A stretch of 64,000 nt of DNA from Methylomonas sp. (GTDB lineage: Bacteria; Pseudomonadota; Gammaproteobacteria; Methylococcales; Methylomonadaceae): positions 1,805 to 65,804 of the forward strand of contig PESC01000050.1 in NCBI GenBank assembly GCA_002929135.1. Reading direction: 5' to 3'. Under the pieces are notes generated by a model, which saw only the letters and a program-made list of their open reading frames with translations, had not been told where the DNA came from and did no database searches. This document shows, piece by piece, positions 8,648 to 14,693 of the stretch (the stretch's first letter is position 1; every line of letters starts with the position of its first letter). Made by a program: the position numbers and the translations under genes.

Positions 8648-9157
8648 TCAGTAAGTACTCTCTGAATTGACCATCTCGGGTTGTTCGTCGTCGAACAGCC
8701 TTTCGTCCGAATCAATCAAACCGTATTTGTGCCTGAGGTAGGCCTTCATCCAGACACCGGTGTCGGCTCGTTTGAAGGGGGCGGCTTCCGGCAGCATTTG
8801 CAGGCGCTGGCGCAGGGCATAGTCCGGCATCAGCAGCAGTTCGATGTCGGTCATGGCCACGAATTTTTCCGGCCGCAGATTTTTGCCATTGAGTATCTTG
8901 AAAACCTGATGTTTCTTCAGTTCCAGTTCGGTCGACAATTCGCCCTTGAATTCCAGAAACATCATCAGCAGGTCGCTGCCGCTCAGGCTGTCATCGTGCA
9001 AGGCATCAAGACGGTTGAGCAGGTGGTGAATGGCAAAGCGATACAGCTTTGATTCCCTGATGAATAATCGGGTGGCCATCGAGCGTACGGCAATGCGGTC
9101 TTCATTGCTCAGACGCATCGATACGATGTACTTGCGATCCAAATCCTTGTCGTTCAA
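8648..9157 (-). CDS. Hypothetical protein with an N-terminal ribbon-helix-helix-like domain
   Basis: YIVSMRL strand, SNEDRIAVRSMATRL helix, RESKLYRFAIHHLL helix; TTG start with SD (aaaggt). Confidence 0.7.
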   Translation of the reverse strand: MNDKDLDRKYIVSMRLSNEDRIAVRSMATRLFIRESKLYRFAIHHLLNRLDALHDDSLSGSDLLMMFLEFKGELSTELELKKHQVFKILNGKNLRPEKFVAMTDIELLLMPDYALRQRLQMLPEAAPFKRADTGVWMKAYLRHKYGLIDSDERLFDDEQPEMVNSESTY

Positions 9158-9312
9158 CGTTGATTACCTTTTTATTATGCCCCCACCATCACCCTCATTC
9201 GGTAGGAGGGGATAGGCTGAACGGTTACGTCGTGTCGGCTTTTTGATGATATTCGGGCAGAGATAACAACGGTATCGCCTACCCGGACAGTCGCAGAAGC
9301 ATAAGGCGATAA

Positions 9313-9330
9313 TGTTACAGATTTGTAACA
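9313..9330. promoter_or_regulatory. Perfect palindromic operator candidate TGTTACA-N4-TGTAACA
   Basis: 7-bp inverted repeat in the divergent intergenic region. Confidence 0.5.
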
Positions 9331-9440
9331 GTTTGATTACAGGTGAGGCTCTGAGTATCCATGTCGGCATGAGGTGATGCGTCTGTGAGTTTTTGACTGC
9401 CTGTCCGTCTGAGCATTGTGACGGCAGGTGTCATAAACAA

Positions 9441-9474
9441 ATGTCATAAAACAGTCATATTGCCTTCGCATAAT
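9441..9474 (+). promoter_or_regulatory. Pho box plus -10 element (PhoB-type promoter)
   Basis: ATGTCAT-AAAA-CAGTCAT (16/18 to CTGTCATAAAACTGTCAT), 10-nt spacer, CATAAT. Confidence 0.75.
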
Positions 9475-9480
9475 CTGGCC

Positions 9481-10053
9481 ATGAGTGACCTGACGCCGCG
9501 ATTTGCCATTCAACAGCCCGGGGCGAAATTCGCCAGGTATCTGCCCAAGTCGCTCCGTCTGTCGTCGCTGGCAACGATTGCCGCCAGCGTTTATTGCCTG
9601 CTGGCCCTGTCATCGTTTCTGCTGAGTGATAGCGGTGACACACGGATTGCCGAGCCAGTGTCTGCCGATGCCGCAGCGCTTCCGCAAGGCGCTGTTGTCG
9701 ATTACGCCGACATAGCAAACTGGAGCTTGTTTGCACCGCCCGGCGATGCTGCGCTGGCGGCCACCGCTGAGCAGCAAGCCACCACAGAAAATGGCGTGAC
9801 CGAATCACTGCCTGCTACGCCATTGCCGCTCACGCTGCTGGGAACTTGGGTGTTTTCGGCGCAGGAACACAACCGCTACGCCATCATTCAAAGTGCTACT
9901 GACAGCCCGCGCCGTTATCGCATTGGCGACGACATCGGCGACGGTGCGCAATTGCAGGCCGTGGAATTGCGCCGCGTCATCATCCGTCGGGGTGCGGTGA
10001 GTGAATATCTGGCCTTTCCGCCCAACCCCGTTACCTTGTCGGTCAACGACTGA
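9481..10053 (+). CDS. gspC: Type II secretion protein C (short, no PDZ)
   Basis: One N-terminal TM, WSLF, LTLLGT..AIIQ..YRIGD..L.AV...RVII HR-domain pattern; precedes gspD. Confidence 0.8.
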   Translation: MSDLTPRFAIQQPGAKFARYLPKSLRLSSLATIAASVYCLLALSSFLLSDSGDTRIAEPVSADAAALPQGAVVDYADIANWSLFAPPGDAALAATAEQQATTENGVTESLPATPLPLTLLGTWVFSAQEHNRYAIIQSATDSPRRYRIGDDIGDGAQLQAVELRRVIIRRGAVSEYLAFPPNPVTLSVND

Positions 10054-10080
10054 GCTTCTTTTTCAAACACTTTCGCTGTC

Positions 10081-11967
10081 ATGAACAAACGACCGATACG
10101 GCTGATGGTTCTGCTTTGGCTGTTACTCAGCTTCGCCCAAACAGCCAGATCCGAAGAAGCCAAGCTGTTTTCGCTGAATTTCAAGGATGTCGATATCCGA
10201 GCCTTGATCGAAACCGTTGCCGATGCTACCGGCAAGAACTTCGTCATCGATCCGCGCATCACCGGCAACATTACTGTGGTGACGTCAACGCCGATGCGGG
10301 CGTCGCAGGTTTATGACGTGTTTCTGTCCATCCTGAAAGTGCACGGTTTCGCGGCGGTGACGACTGGCGGCATCATCAAGATCGTGCCCACCCAGTCGGC
10401 CAAGCAGGATGGCGACCCTGGCGAACTCAAGCAGATCATTCGTGGCGGCGACGAACAGCAGACGCGCATCGTTCAGCTACATCATGTCGATGCCGGCCAG
10501 CTCGTGCAAACCCTGTTGCCGTTGATGCCGCAATACGCTTTTCTGGCGGCGGTGCCTGAAAGCAACAATCTCATCATTTCCGATACCGCCGCCAATGTCG
10601 CCCGCCTGGAAGCCATGGTGAGCCAGGTCGATAAAAGCGATGCCCAGGTTCTGGAGGTGATTCAACTGCAACATGCCAGCGCCGCCGATTTGATTCAACC
10701 GATCAACAACCTGATTGCAACCATCAATGCTGGTAAAGCCACCGCCACCGCACCGCCGATGGTGGCTGACGAGCGTACCAACAGCATTATCATCGGTGGC
10801 CACCCTGACACGCGCTTGCAGATGCGCACCCTGATTGCCAGTCTCGATGGGCCGATCGAGAAAGACGGCAATACCGAAGTCATTTACCTGCGTTTTGCCA
10901 AAGCCAAGGAAATGGTCGAAACCCTGACCGGCGTCGGCTCGGCAAAAGACGACAAGGCCGAAAAGCCCAAAACCAAGGCCAGTACCGACAAGAATTTCGA
11001 CATTCGCGCTGATGAAGCCATCAATGCCTTGATCATCACCGCACCGTCCGACGTGATGCGCAACTTGAAGCAGGTCATCCGTCAGCTCGATATCCGCCGT
11101 GCCCAGGTGCATATCGAAGCCATCATCGCCGAGGTTACCTACGACAAGTTGCAACAATTGGGTGTCGAATGGCAGACCGACATCGATGGCCCGGGTGGCA
11201 TCGTTGCTGGTCGCACCCGGGGTGGGCGCGATTCGCTCGATCTGGCGGCCTTCGCCACGTCGCTCGGCAAGGGTATGAATATTGGTTATTTGGCAGGTAG
11301 CGAGCTGAAAGCCCTCATCAATGCCTTCGCCTCCAATACCAATGTCAACATTTTGTCGACGCCGTCGCTGGTAACGCTGGACAACGAAGAAGCCAGCATC
11401 ATGGTTGGTGAGAACATCCCGTTGACTACCGGGCAATTCGCGCCGGCGCCGGGCATCAATCAACCGTTCAACACCATTCAGCGCCAGGATGTCGGCATCA
11501 AGCTGAAAGTGTTGCCGCAGATCAATGAGGGCGATGCTGTCAAACTCAAGGTAACGCAGGAGGTTTCCAGTGTCACGGGGCCTGAGCGTTTCACCAAGCG
11601 CCAGATCGAAACTTCGGTACTGGTCGATGACGGCAGGATATTGGTGATGGGCGGGTTGATCGAGGACAAAGTCAACGAAACCGTCGATTCGGTGCCGTTG
11701 CTGGGCGATATTCCACTGTTGGGCTATCTGTTCAGAACCACCAATACCAGTGTCAAAAAGACCAACCTGATGGTATTCCTCAGGCCGCAAATCATTCGCG
11801 ACACACGCCAGTCTGGCGAAGTCACCCAAGACAAATACCATGCCATTCGGGAAAAGCAGCAAAAATTCATTGAAGAAGGTCTGCATCTGATGCCGGATGA
11901 GCCGCAACCTTTGCTGGAATCGTTACCGGATGCCGGTGGCGATGAGGCCTCCGTTGGCCAGCCTTGA
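10081..11967 (+). CDS. gspD: Type II secretion secretin
   Basis: Signal peptide, LNFKDVDIRALI, QLDIRRAQVHIEAII, STPSLVTLDNEEA, VPLLGDIPLLGYLFR. Confidence 0.96.
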   Translation: MNKRPIRLMVLLWLLLSFAQTARSEEAKLFSLNFKDVDIRALIETVADATGKNFVIDPRITGNITVVTSTPMRASQVYDVFLSILKVHGFAAVTTGGIIKIVPTQSAKQDGDPGELKQIIRGGDEQQTRIVQLHHVDAGQLVQTLLPLMPQYAFLAAVPESNNLIISDTAANVARLEAMVSQVDKSDAQVLEVIQLQHASAADLIQPINNLIATINAGKATATAPPMVADERTNSIIIGGHPDTRLQMRTLIASLDGPIEKDGNTEVIYLRFAKAKEMVETLTGVGSAKDDKAEKPKTKASTDKNFDIRADEAINALIITAPSDVMRNLKQVIRQLDIRRAQVHIEAIIAEVTYDKLQQLGVEWQTDIDGPGGIVAGRTRGGRDSLDLAAFATSLGKGMNIGYLAGSELKALINAFASNTNVNILSTPSLVTLDNEEASIMVGENIPLTTGQFAPAPGINQPFNTIQRQDVGIKLKVLPQINEGDAVKLKVTQEVSSVTGPERFTKRQIETSVLVDDGRILVMGGLIEDKVNETVDSVPLLGDIPLLGYLFRTTNTSVKKTNLMVFLRPQIIRDTRQSGEVTQDKYHAIREKQQKFIEEGLHLMPDEPQPLLESLPDAGGDEASVGQP

Positions 11968-13478
11968 GCATGGTTGCCTTGTCTGTCGAGCCTGATGTCG
12001 AGGCGGTCGGCTTGCCGCAATACGGCTTTGCCAAACGTCATGGTGTTGTCGTGATGTCTGAAGAAGACGGTGGCGAGCTGCTGGTGTGTCACCGCCAGGA
12101 CACGCCGCTGACCGCCTTGCTGGAAGTCCGTCGCTGGCTGGGGCGATCAGCCCGCTTCCAGGGGGTGTCGGATGCTGAATTCGAGCAGCGTTTGCAGGCG
12201 GTTTACGAGCACAAAACCGGTCAGTCGCGCGACATGGTCGATCAGTTGCACGAGCAGGTCGATTTGTCTGACATGGCTTTGCATTTGCCCAAGCCGGAAG
12301 ATTTGCTGGAAAGCGAGGACGAGGCACCCATCATCCGGTTAATTAACGCGCTGCTGGCCGAGGCGATCAAGGAAAATGCCTCGGACATTCATATCGAACC
12401 CTACGAATCGCGCATGGTGGTGCGCTTCCGTGTCGATGGCGTGTTGCGCGAGATCATCGAGCCGCAGCGTGAATTCGCGCCCATGGTGATTTCGCGGCTG
12501 AAAGTCATGGCCAAGCTCGATATTGCCGAAAAACGTTTGCCGCAGGATGGCCGGATTTCGTTGATCATCGGCGGACGCACCGTCGATGTGCGGGTGTCAA
12601 CCTTGCCGTCCGGTCATGGCGAGCGTGTGGTTTTGCGCCTTCTCGACAAGCAGGCCAATCAGCTTAGTCTGAAGCAGGTGGGCATGGCGTCAGACGAGCT
12701 GGCACGCATTCAGGCCATGATCGCCCGGCCACACGGCATCATTCTGGTCACCGGGCCGACGGGTTCCGGCAAAACCACTAGCTTGTACGCTATTGTCAAT
12801 CAGCTCAACGAGCGGACACGCAACATTCTCACCGTCGAAGATCCGATCGAATATTACCTCGACGGTATAGGTCAAACCCAAGTCAATGCCAAGGTCGAGA
12901 TGACCTTCGCCAAAGGCTTGCGTGCCATTTTGCGCCAAGACCCGGATGTGGTAATGGTGGGCGAGATTCGTGACCGCGAAACCGCCGAAATTGCGGTACA
13001 GGCCAGTCTGACCGGTCATTTAGTGCTATCAACACTGCATACCAACACGGCGGTGGGTGCCATTACCCGTTTGCGCGACATGGGCGTCGAGCCGTTTTTG
13101 CTGGCATCCAGTCTGGTGGGGGTGATAGCCCAGCGCCTGGTGCGGGTGTTGTGTCCACGCTGCAAGCAAACCACGCGAGTACCGGCGACTGATCTGCTGT
13201 GCCTGGGATTGGTCGCCGATGACGTAGAGGTCGAGGTTTGTGTGCCGGTCGGCTGTGCGCATTGCCAGGGCCGGGGTTACAAGGGCAGGGCGGGTATTTT
13301 CGAAATCATTCCGATCGATTCGGCGATGGCGCATCTGATACACGATGGTGCGGGCGACAGAGAGCTGGAAGCGCACGCCCGCCTGCTGGCGCCGAGCATA
13401 CAGCACAGCGCGTTAAGTAAGGTGCTGGCCGGGGATACCAGTATCGATGAAGCCTTACGCATGACGCTGAAAGAGTAG
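11964..13478 (+). CDS. gspE: Type II secretion ATPase
   Basis: ASDIHIEP, GPTGSGKT, LRQDPDVVMVGEIRD, CPRC/CAHC. Confidence 0.96.
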   Translation: MSMVALSVEPDVEAVGLPQYGFAKRHGVVVMSEEDGGELLVCHRQDTPLTALLEVRRWLGRSARFQGVSDAEFEQRLQAVYEHKTGQSRDMVDQLHEQVDLSDMALHLPKPEDLLESEDEAPIIRLINALLAEAIKENASDIHIEPYESRMVVRFRVDGVLREIIEPQREFAPMVISRLKVMAKLDIAEKRLPQDGRISLIIGGRTVDVRVSTLPSGHGERVVLRLLDKQANQLSLKQVGMASDELARIQAMIARPHGIILVTGPTGSGKTTSLYAIVNQLNERTRNILTVEDPIEYYLDGIGQTQVNAKVEMTFAKGLRAILRQDPDVVMVGEIRDRETAEIAVQASLTGHLVLSTLHTNTAVGAITRLRDMGVEPFLLASSLVGVIAQRLVRVLCPRCKQTTRVPATDLLCLGLVADDVEVEVCVPVGCAHCQGRGYKGRAGIFEIIPIDSAMAHLIHDGAGDRELEAHARLLAPSIQHSALSKVLAGDTSIDEALRMTLKE

Positions 13479-13481
13479 GGC

Positions 13482-14693
13482 ATGGCGGCATTCGAATATC
13501 AAGCCATCGACGGTCGGGGGCGCACGGTTAAAGGCACACTGGAGAGCGACAGCGCCAAATCGGCGCGTCAGCAATTGAAGGTGACCGGGCTGACCTTGCT
13601 CGCCATTCAGGAAATCCACAAACAGGAAAACCGGCAGCGGGCGTCGCTGTGGACGCAACGCATCGGGATGCGGGCGCTGACCCATATCACCCGGCAGTTG
13701 GCCGCTTTGCTGAAGTCAGGGCTGGCAATCGATGAGGCACTGGCCATCGTGGCCCGGCAGTCGGAATCGGCTAAGGCCAGGCGTATCGTCACGGCGATCA
13801 GAACCCGCGTCGTCGAAGGCCAGAGTCTGGCGCAGGCTTGTCAGGGCTTTCCCAGCAGCTTTCCGCCCATGTATCGTGCCACGGTCGAGGCTGGGGAGTC
13901 GTCGGGCAAGCTGGATCAGGTGCTGGAAAAACTTGCGGACTATCTCAGCGACAAGGGCCAACTGCATCGCAAGCTGCAAATGGCGATGATTTATCCGGTG
14001 CTGCTGACGGGGGTGTCGCTGTTGGTGGTCATCGGTTTGCTGACCTATGTCGTGCCGGAAATCACCGGGGTATTCGACAAGATGGGCCAGCAATTGCCCG
14101 CAATTACCCGTGGCCTGATCGCGAGCAGCGATTTTTTCAAGGATTACGGTTTGATGCTGGTGGTTTTGCTTATTGTGCTGACGATGGCTTTCAAATGGCT
14201 GATGCGCCGTGACGAGCCGCGTATGCGTTTTCACCGCTGGCTGCTGCGCTGGCCACTGACGGCGAAGTTTTCGCGTGGTCTCAATACCGCACGGTTCACC
14301 CGCACGCTGGCGATTCTGACCAACAGCGGCGTCGAATTGTTGACGGCTTTGCGCATCGCCAGTCAGGTGCTGGGTAACGATGCCATGCGCAAGGCCGTCG
14401 AAACCGCCGCCTTGCGGGTTCGTGAAGGCCAGAGCCTGAACCGGGCACTGGAAAGCAGCCGTTTTTTTCCGCCCGTGACCATACATCTGATTGCCAGCGG
14501 CGAGGCCAGTGGTCAGTTGCCGCGCATGCTGGAAAGCGCCGCCGACGACCAGGAGCGTGACATTCAGGCGCTGACCGAGTTGACGATGGGCTTGTTCGAA
14601 CCGGCCCTGATTCTGACCATGGGCTTGCTGGTTTTGGTTATCGTGCTGGCCATACTGCTGCCGATTTTCGAGATGAACCAGTTGATACGCTGA
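13482..14693 (+). CDS. gspF: Type II secretion inner-membrane platform protein
   Basis: MAAFEYQA, GESSGKLDQVL, AMIYP, GEASGQL, FEPALI..PIFEMNQL. Confidence 0.95.
   Translation: MAAFEYQAIDGRGRTVKGTLESDSAKSARQQLKVTGLTLLAIQEIHKQENRQRASLWTQRIGMRALTHITRQLAALLKSGLAIDEALAIVARQSESAKARRIVTAIRTRVVEGQSLAQACQGFPSSFPPMYRATVEAGESSGKLDQVLEKLADYLSDKGQLHRKLQMAMIYPVLLTGVSLLVVIGLLTYVVPEITGVFDKMGQQLPAITRGLIASSDFFKDYGLMLVVLLIVLTMAFKWLMRRDEPRMRFHRWLLRWPLTAKFSRGLNTARFTRTLAILTNSGVELLTALRIASQVLGNDAMRKAVETAALRVREGQSLNRALESSRFFPPVTIHLIASGEASGQLPRMLESAADDQERDIQALTELTMGLFEPALILTMGLLVLVIVLAILLPIFEMNQLIR

Follow-up and report, generated by a model that had tools for sequence, protein, structure and literature searches.

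The stretch of DNA analyzed here, referred to below as the window, comprises 64,000 nucleotides of a Methylomonas metagenome-assembled genome (MAG; GenBank GCA_002929135.1, contig PESC01000050.1, positions 1,805 to 65,804 of the forward strand), and it carries a gspCDEF cluster of a type II secretion system (T2SS) preceded by a predicted phosphate-starvation promoter. Gene identities were assigned by Pfam and NCBIfam profile searches. The first gene, gspC (9481..10053), encodes a 190-residue protein with the HR domain only and no PDZ domain (PF11356, 59.7 bits). It is followed by gspD (10081..11967), encoding a 628-residue secretin with N0, N1-N3 and secretin domains (TIGR02517, 526 bits); by gspE (11964..13478), encoding an ATPase with the GspL-binding N1E domain (TIGR02533, 681 bits against a cut-off of 630; PF22341), the start of which is placed two codons later in other assemblies (502 residues); and by gspF (13482..14693), encoding the inner-membrane platform protein (TIGR02120, 489.6 bits) and closing the unit, all four genes being on the forward strand. 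The GspD, GspE and GspF proteins of the window all exceed the canonical Gsp equivalog cut-offs. The N-terminus of GspD, MNKRPIRLMVLLWLLLSFAQTARSEE, is a signal peptide with no lipobox and no cysteine, and the 5.2 kb of gspCDEF contain no frameshifts or stop codons. Because a hemerythrin gene and then coxBA come next, the cluster ends with gspF, as the initial annotation had stated, and the junction between gspF and the hemerythrin gene, with a gap of 125 bp, is the same in at least seven independent assemblies.

The Pho box upstream of gspC lies at 9441..9458 on the forward strand (ATGTCATAAAACAGTCAT) and consists of two 7-bp direct repeats, ATGTCAT and CAGTCAT, separated by AAAA, at the place of a -35 element. 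The -10 hexamer CATAAT (9469..9474, forward strand) follows exactly 10 nt 3' of the box, after the spacer ATTGCCTTCG. This is the E. coli phoA-type geometry that the initial annotation had recognized, and the sequence bears it out. The half-sites TGTCAT (9442) and AGTCAT (9453) are 11 bp apart, in the Pho-box register. A Pho box is defined as 18 bp with two 7-bp repeats and a 4-bp A/T spacer (PMC4415409), and the gspC box fits 16 of the 18 positions of the consensus quoted in PMC2225411. A sigma-70 scan found no -35 match at the gspC promoter, which fits the expectation for an activator-dependent promoter. The pattern GTCAY-N6-GTCAY-N11-ATAAT, with at most one mismatch, matches once in the window where 0.01 matches are expected. 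Across the genome, the composite of box, 10 nt and -10 hexamer has 18 matches compared with 4-11 in local shuffles, and seven sites reach a high composite score compared with none in the shuffles, the gspC site being joint best of the genome. A further TGTCAT half-site (9429..9434, forward strand), pointed out in the initial annotation, is present but was rejected as a third repeat, since it starts 13 bp before the first repeat, off the 11-bp register, and is conserved in none of the 14 orthologous promoters described next; it is probably incidental, or a weak auxiliary site.

Similarity of GspD assigns the window to the Methylococcales, the nearest relatives being found in Methylomonas MAGs and isolates (66-74% identity), and the next in Crenothrix and other Methylococcaceae (57-59% identity). 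All 14 orthologous gspC promoters compared, from the Methylococcales, retain nGTCATAAAACAGTCAT-N10-(C/T)ATAAT within flanks that are otherwise unalignable. The information per column is 1.65 bits in the box and 1.88 bits in the -10 hexamer, compared with 0.2 in the flanks. The (C/T)ATAAT hexamer is invariant, and the A of the second repeat, CAGTCAT, is found in 13 orthologs and replaced by G only in genome G014. The possibility, raised in the initial annotation, that the box would prove to be unconserved in orthologous promoters, which would have undermined the Pho-box interpretation, therefore does not hold.

The gspC start codon (9481..9483, forward strand) is separated from the -10 hexamer by CTGGCC only, and its A, the seventh nucleotide after the hexamer, coincides with the predicted transcription start. 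An ATG lies 6-7 nt 3' of the -10 hexamer at 13 of the 14 orthologous loci. There is no Shine-Dalgarno sequence at gspC, and no other in-frame ATG, GTG or TTG ahead of the transmembrane segment. Because the spacing of the ATG is kept, and both a Shine-Dalgarno sequence and an alternative start are lacking, the PhoB-dependent gspCDEF mRNA is predicted to be leaderless. The sole ortholog without an ATG at this distance is that of Methylococcaceae VK_bin-0278 (L006:5392-5470), which has a tandem duplication in which ctaagaatatagtacaaatt is repeated; the duplication may be a recent insertion that pushed the start away.

The same genome encodes the expected regulator and a set of similar promoters. 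The phoB-phoR pair lies at C2:68330-70302 (phoB assigned by similarity, phoR from its position only). PhoB of this genome and PhoB of E. coli share 54% identity, and the TGTCA-reading recognition helix, RTVDVHIRRLRK, is the same in both. The layout of box, 10 nt and -10 hexamer is found upstream of pstS, phoB and five further loci, the composite scan placing the predicted Pho-regulon sites at C2:41083(-), C2:68267(+), C13:16593(-), C27:4443(-), C43:1177(-), C43:4578(-) and C8:11941(+). The pstS gene with the Pho box (PBP_like_2) belongs to a pstSCAB-phoU cluster, and the spacer between its box and -10 hexamer, ATTGGCTTCA, resembles that of gspC. Besides gspC, pstS and phoB, the predicted Pho regulon would include genes for an OprO/P phosphate porin, a choice-of-anchor-I protein, a lipid-remodeling pair formed by a PlcP-like metallophosphoesterase and a glycosyltransferase, the site of the latter having three to four repeats in the 11-bp register, and a DUF2341-LamG-ExbB fusion with ExbD, TonB and a Porin_5 protein. 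The original identification of a Pho box at gspC thus gains support from two sides, the near-invariance of box and -10 hexamer among orthologs, and the recurrence of the layout at pstS, phoB and the OprO/P porin gene of the same genome. A separate, good composite site at C8:18058(+), TGTCAT-ggatt-TGTAAT followed after 10 nt by TAGCAT, stands ahead of a gene for a V/A-type ATPase B-subunit (449 residues), an unexpected candidate for the Pho regulon.

The genome also contains another T2SS. On contig C1 the genes gspF-G-H-I-J-K-L-M-N(C)-D stand in Xps order and include their own secretin gene. The GspM of this cluster matches the XpsM equivalog NF040576 (154 bits), and its GspL, a PilM/PilN-type protein, does not match PF05134. 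An orphan gspE on contig C12 passes the GspE equivalog cut-off. With the XpsF model the C1 GspF scores 353 bits and the window GspF 237 bits, both being under the 650-bit cut-off, and the window and C1 paralogues of GspF and GspD are only about 30-33% identical. A check of the second gsp sets for Pho boxes, proposed in the initial annotation, found none upstream of the C1 cluster or of the C12 gspE; Pho boxes are present before gspG in relatives. The Xps-type T2SS is the housekeeping system, and gspCDEF of the window are part of an accessory T2SS; since the genome holds this second, separate system, the window cluster cannot be part of a sole T2SS that was split in two. Other GspE/GspF-like sets were considered as the missing partner of gspCDEF and rejected. 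The order and sizes of its genes lead us to read the GspE/GspF pair on contig C3 as pilBCD, the pilD-like ORF of 291 residues after pilB-pilC (C3:19332-20207) being assigned as a prepilin peptidase by position only. The C24 set (C24:3048-11493) includes a secretin and a TPR protein and would fit an MSHA-like pilus; the C14 set (C14:52500-63291) has one N-methyl (pilin-like) protein of 391 residues; and the C40 gene encodes a TfpB-type ATPase. Canonical GspG-M proteins are supplied by none of the C3, C24, C14 and C40 sets. The C14 set adjoins a gene for a ShlB/FhaC-type TpsB protein, an orthologue of which borders the locus of the accessory T2SS in M. lenta and in G024, a closed genome.

In relatives, the accessory T2SS is complete. 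Canonical gspG-H-I-J-K lie directly 3' of gspF in Crenothrix, in two other Methylococcales MAGs and in Methylococcaceae OWC_0100, and gspG-M are located away from gspF in Methylomonas sp. FW.007, M. lenta and G014, the two operons being 460 kb apart in G014. In G024, where the locus shares synteny with the window toward hslVU, gspG-M lie 7.3 kb 3' of gspF. Whether the genes are contiguous or split, gspG is preceded by its own Pho box, 10 nt and -10 hexamer in every relative examined, and because each gspG has a Pho box of its own, two Pho-box units of one T2SS appear to be ancestral. The ancestral design, as read from these arrangements, is a single canonical T2SS encoded by the units gspCDEF and gspGHIJKLM, with rearrangements at the boundary between gspF and gspG. 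The system of the relatives carries canonical GspL (PF05134) and GspM (PF04612). Window-type gspD is present in nine of 19 same-genus genomes, and the eight same-genus relatives that have it all have canonical gspG as well, with GspL in seven. Four genomes without window-type gspD were searched, of which G008, G011 and G018 have only an Xps-type gspG and G010 has no gspG. The same-genus gspD/gspG survey found no relative with gspCDEF only. The reading of gspCDEF as a stand-alone module by design, and with it the suggestion of a new system in the initial annotation, is consequently not supported.

The genes linked to the locus give an indication of function. In Methylomonas sp. FW.007 a PhoA-family alkaline phosphatase of 534 residues with a signal peptide is encoded 28 bp after gspF on the same strand (L003:10639-12243), at the spot where other genomes have gspG, and next to it is encoded a protein of 242 residues that matches no family and has a hydrophobic N-terminus. 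In G001, G003 and G024, gspG has its Pho box and is transcribed divergently from a gene for a choice-of-anchor-I protein, and in G024 the 250-bp spacer (L108:13810-14057) contains two opposed Pho boxes, facing gspG and the choice-of-anchor-I gene. Secreted proteins of about 260-290 and about 520 residues are encoded after gspM in the same three genomes. Because genes for PhoA, choice-of-anchor-I and secreted proteins are linked to the locus, the accessory T2SS most likely exports phosphorus-scavenging proteins when inorganic phosphate (Pi) is low.

We conclude that 9441-9474 is probably a PhoB-dependent promoter of gspCDEF, the first of two Pho-box units of a canonical accessory T2SS. The observations behind this reading are the geometry of the sequence, the identities of the genes, their conservation and co-occurrence, and the Pho-regulon context of the genome itself, and the predicted Pho promoter is well supported by the comparative evidence. 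In the mechanism that we propose, in which the binding of PhoB, the induction by low Pi, the leaderless mRNA and the nature of the substrates are inferred, phosphorylated PhoB would bind at low Pi to two 11-bp direct-repeat units in place of a -35 element and would then recruit RNA polymerase, as at a sigma-70 promoter, to the CATAAT hexamer 10 nt downstream. Transcription would begin at the A of the gspC ATG and yield a leaderless polycistronic gspC-gspD-gspE-gspF mRNA. The gspCDEF and gspGHIJKLM units together would encode one canonical accessory T2SS, separate from the Pho-box-free Xps-type T2SS. This accessory system is present in about half of the sampled Methylomonas genomes and also in other Methylococcales, and its likely role is the export of phosphorus-scavenging proteins at low Pi.

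Several points weigh against this interpretation. Leaderless mRNAs are uncommon in Gammaproteobacteria. The bare motif TGTCAT-N5-TGTCAT, with at most one mismatch, occurs 11 times genome-wide, approximately the number expected by chance; we therefore dropped the bare hexamer count as evidence for the Pho box, and significance comes from geometry, position and conservation, not from the hexamers alone. No PhoA homologue is encoded in this genome and no substrate was identified, and PhoA is found in same-genus genomes both with and without this T2SS. PhoA was accordingly rejected as an obligatory cargo, since it occurs with and without the system, is absent here, and is linked to gspF in one relative only. 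Some predicted Pho boxes have no obvious Pi regulation, according to reviews (PMC4415409), and hxcR of the comparable Hxc system is not Pi-induced in P. fluorescens SBW25 (PMC2225411). Finally, canonical gspG-M, without which the machine would not work, are absent from this assembly: the single gspG is the Xps-type gene on C1, and there is no PF05134 GspL. For this last point, we rate true loss from the genome at slightly better than an even chance and a missing contig at slightly worse than one.

If a contig is missing, both operons exist in the organism, that of gspG-M (about 5.5 kb) on a contig missed in assembly or binning. The partial appearance of the cluster is then an artefact, and the system is an ordinary representative of the Pho-regulated T2SS of Methylomonas, which we consider quite possible. 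The MAG is 95.86% complete and in 63 contigs, canonical gspG accompanies this gspD in all eight same-genus genomes, and wide separation of the two operons is normal, as G014 demonstrates. The four ORFs, the box and the -10 hexamer are all intact, and the ratio of GspD to HslU distances is 2.63 here compared with 3.43 for other pairs, so there is no rate acceleration and, because the ratio is not above that of other pairs, no sign of relaxed selection on GspD. Against an assembly gap, a tblastn search with the canonical G-M proteins of FW.007 gave only weak matches, all to genes of the Xps-type system, and no gene fragments at the ends of contigs. The choice-of-anchor-I gene, the divergent neighbor of gspG in G001, G003 and G024, is located here inside a contig beside an ABC-F gene, with only 101 bp between them. 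A metagenome scan with a GspL profile of two peptide patterns and low sensitivity found a single contig with canonical gspG-M, L162, in a sample that also contains this organism; L162 has a GC content of 50.6% compared with 57.7% and no nucleotide match to this genome. Because of these differences, L162 was rejected as part of this genome and assigned to another organism. A comparison of flanking synteny for traces of a clean deletion favors neither reading: the genes downstream of gspM in G024 and M. lenta, for proteins of 289 and 521 residues and for TpsB, are dispersed here, and different genes follow gspF.

If the loss is real, gspCDEF may be a relic. Deletion of gspG-M and PhoA in a genome-reduced lineage would have left gspCDEF intact and functionless with the Pho promoter retained, a scenario that we regard as unlikely, if credible. 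The genome is 2.57 Mb compared with 4.5-5.4 Mb for all same-genus genomes carrying the system, and the whole system is gone from other small same-genus genomes, namely G007, G010, G011 and G017. PhoA is missing here and present in most of the genus, and the junction between gspF and the hemerythrin gene in independent assemblies also agrees with a true deletion. A functionless remnant is more difficult to reconcile with 5.2 kb of uninterrupted reading frames and a perfectly conserved promoter, with a GspD whose rate of evolution is not raised over that of lineages possessing the entire system, and with the recurrence of the intact sequence across several samples.

The other form of true loss is a hybrid, the idea put forward in the initial annotation, in which Pi-induced GspC, GspD, GspE and GspF join the Xps-type pseudopilins and GspL/M of contig C1 and so provide an alternative secretin, ATPase and platform at low Pi. 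This would account for intact gspCDEF without relaxed evolution in an assembly whose only pseudopilins and GspL/M are Xps-type, and the positionally assigned PilD on C3 would provide the prepilin peptidase. The Xps-type system, however, has its own F, D and C/N in addition to the orphan gspE and needs nothing from gspCDEF, and the N1E domain of the window GspE normally docks on canonical GspL, whereas the only GspL-like protein available is of the PilM/PilN type. The low identity of the F and D paralogues and the lack of any gspCDEF-only relative also argue against such an exchange. The hybrid is disfavored because the Xps-type system is complete by itself and N1E normally needs canonical GspL; we think it improbable, and a chimeric T2SS after true gspG-M loss, in which gspCDEF borrow the Xps-type pseudopilins together with the PilM/PilN-type GspL and the XpsM-type GspM, more improbable still.

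Upstream of gspC, and divergent from it, lies a conserved ORF of 169 residues (8648..9157, reverse strand) with no Pfam or NCBIfam match. Its orthologs (52-67% identity) adjoin gspC in Methylomonas sp. FW.007, OWC_0100, M. lenta and G024; the synteny is thus seen in five Methylomonas-type genomes, this one included, and the ORF is not beside gspC in the Crenothrix-type loci. Just past it is a gene of the inositol-monophosphatase family (PF00459; 7821..8585, forward strand) without a Pho box. In the spacer shared by the 169-residue ORF and gspC, comparison of five genomes revealed a second conserved element, AATGTTACAG-N4-TAACAGTTTGATTACA (9306..9340, no strand assigned), kept in this genome, G024, Methylomonas sp. 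FW.007, OWC_0100 and M. lenta. The distance from this element to the Pho box is about 110-130 bp, the element being the more upstream, and a weak sigma-70-like match of the promoter scan (9284-9313) overlaps it. It may serve the divergent gene as promoter or operator, or provide gspC with a second input. That the direct repeat at gspC is instead the operator of a regulator other than PhoB, or part of a PhoB-independent promoter, with expression that does not respond to phosphate, could be argued from this element, from the conserved divergent ORF and from the behavior of hxcR in P. fluorescens, yet is very improbable given the same layout at the pstS and phoB genes of this genome and a PhoB recognition helix identical to that of E. 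coli.

The locus predicts a dedicated secretion machine that is switched on at low Pi in part of Methylomonas, in Crenothrix and in related Methylococcales. In many freshwaters and groundwaters, phosphorus is a limiting factor for methane oxidation. Our literature searches returned only one study on the phosphate-starvation response of a methanotroph, on lipid remodeling in Methylosinus, and no description of a Pho-regulated T2SS in methanotrophs. The partial gsp clusters in these genomes are explained by a two-operon design that breaks between gspF and gspG. The predicted Pho promoter is compact, with box, -10 hexamer and leaderless start within 41 bp, and could serve as a Pi-responsive element in methanotroph engineering. 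If the hybrid were true, it would represent a naturally occurring chimeric T2SS that takes up an alternative secretin, ATPase and platform upon phosphate starvation, and it would bear on the specificity of T2SS sub-assemblies for one another.

The promoter resembles those of E. coli phoA and pstS in that an 18-bp box stands in for the -35 element, with 10 nt between it and the -10 hexamer. It differs from them in that the ATG is only 6 nt past the -10 hexamer, with no Shine-Dalgarno sequence and no predicted 5' untranslated region, and in that the second repeat, CAGTCAT, has A for T. Among secretion systems, the Xps system of Xanthomonas (xpsE-N, D order) is the counterpart of the C1 system with its F-G-H-I-J-K-L-M-N-D order, and the window cluster is not Xps-type. 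Of the known systems, the nearest is the Hxc system of P. aeruginosa (PA0677-PA0687, with lapA and lapB adjacent), and Hxc-like systems are also found in P. fluorescens and P. putida. The secretin of Hxc, HxcQ, is a self-piloting liposecretin, and the genes pdtA/pdtB and exbB2/exbD2 adjoin hxc. These neighbors are paralleled by the TpsB gene that flanks the locus in G024 and M. lenta and by the ExbB/ExbD/TonB set with a Pho box in this genome. The Hxc T2SS proteins and LapA/LapB show ON/OFF behavior in P. aeruginosa, appearing only under Pi limitation (PMC9769906), so a phosphate-regulated accessory T2SS was already known and the window does not reveal a new kind of system, for which it had first been put forward as a candidate. 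In both cases a second T2SS exists beside a housekeeping one, and phosphatase-type genes for known or candidate cargo are linked to it, lapA/lapB in Pseudomonas and phoA after gspF in Methylomonas sp. FW.007, a likeness by features. The linked candidate cargo in the methanotroph is a PhoA-family enzyme and not a LapA-type one, and the window secretin has an ordinary signal peptide with no lipobox cysteine. The accessory T2SS described here differs further from Hxc in its canonical gspC-M gene order, its two Pho-box units and the predicted leaderless start of its first gene.

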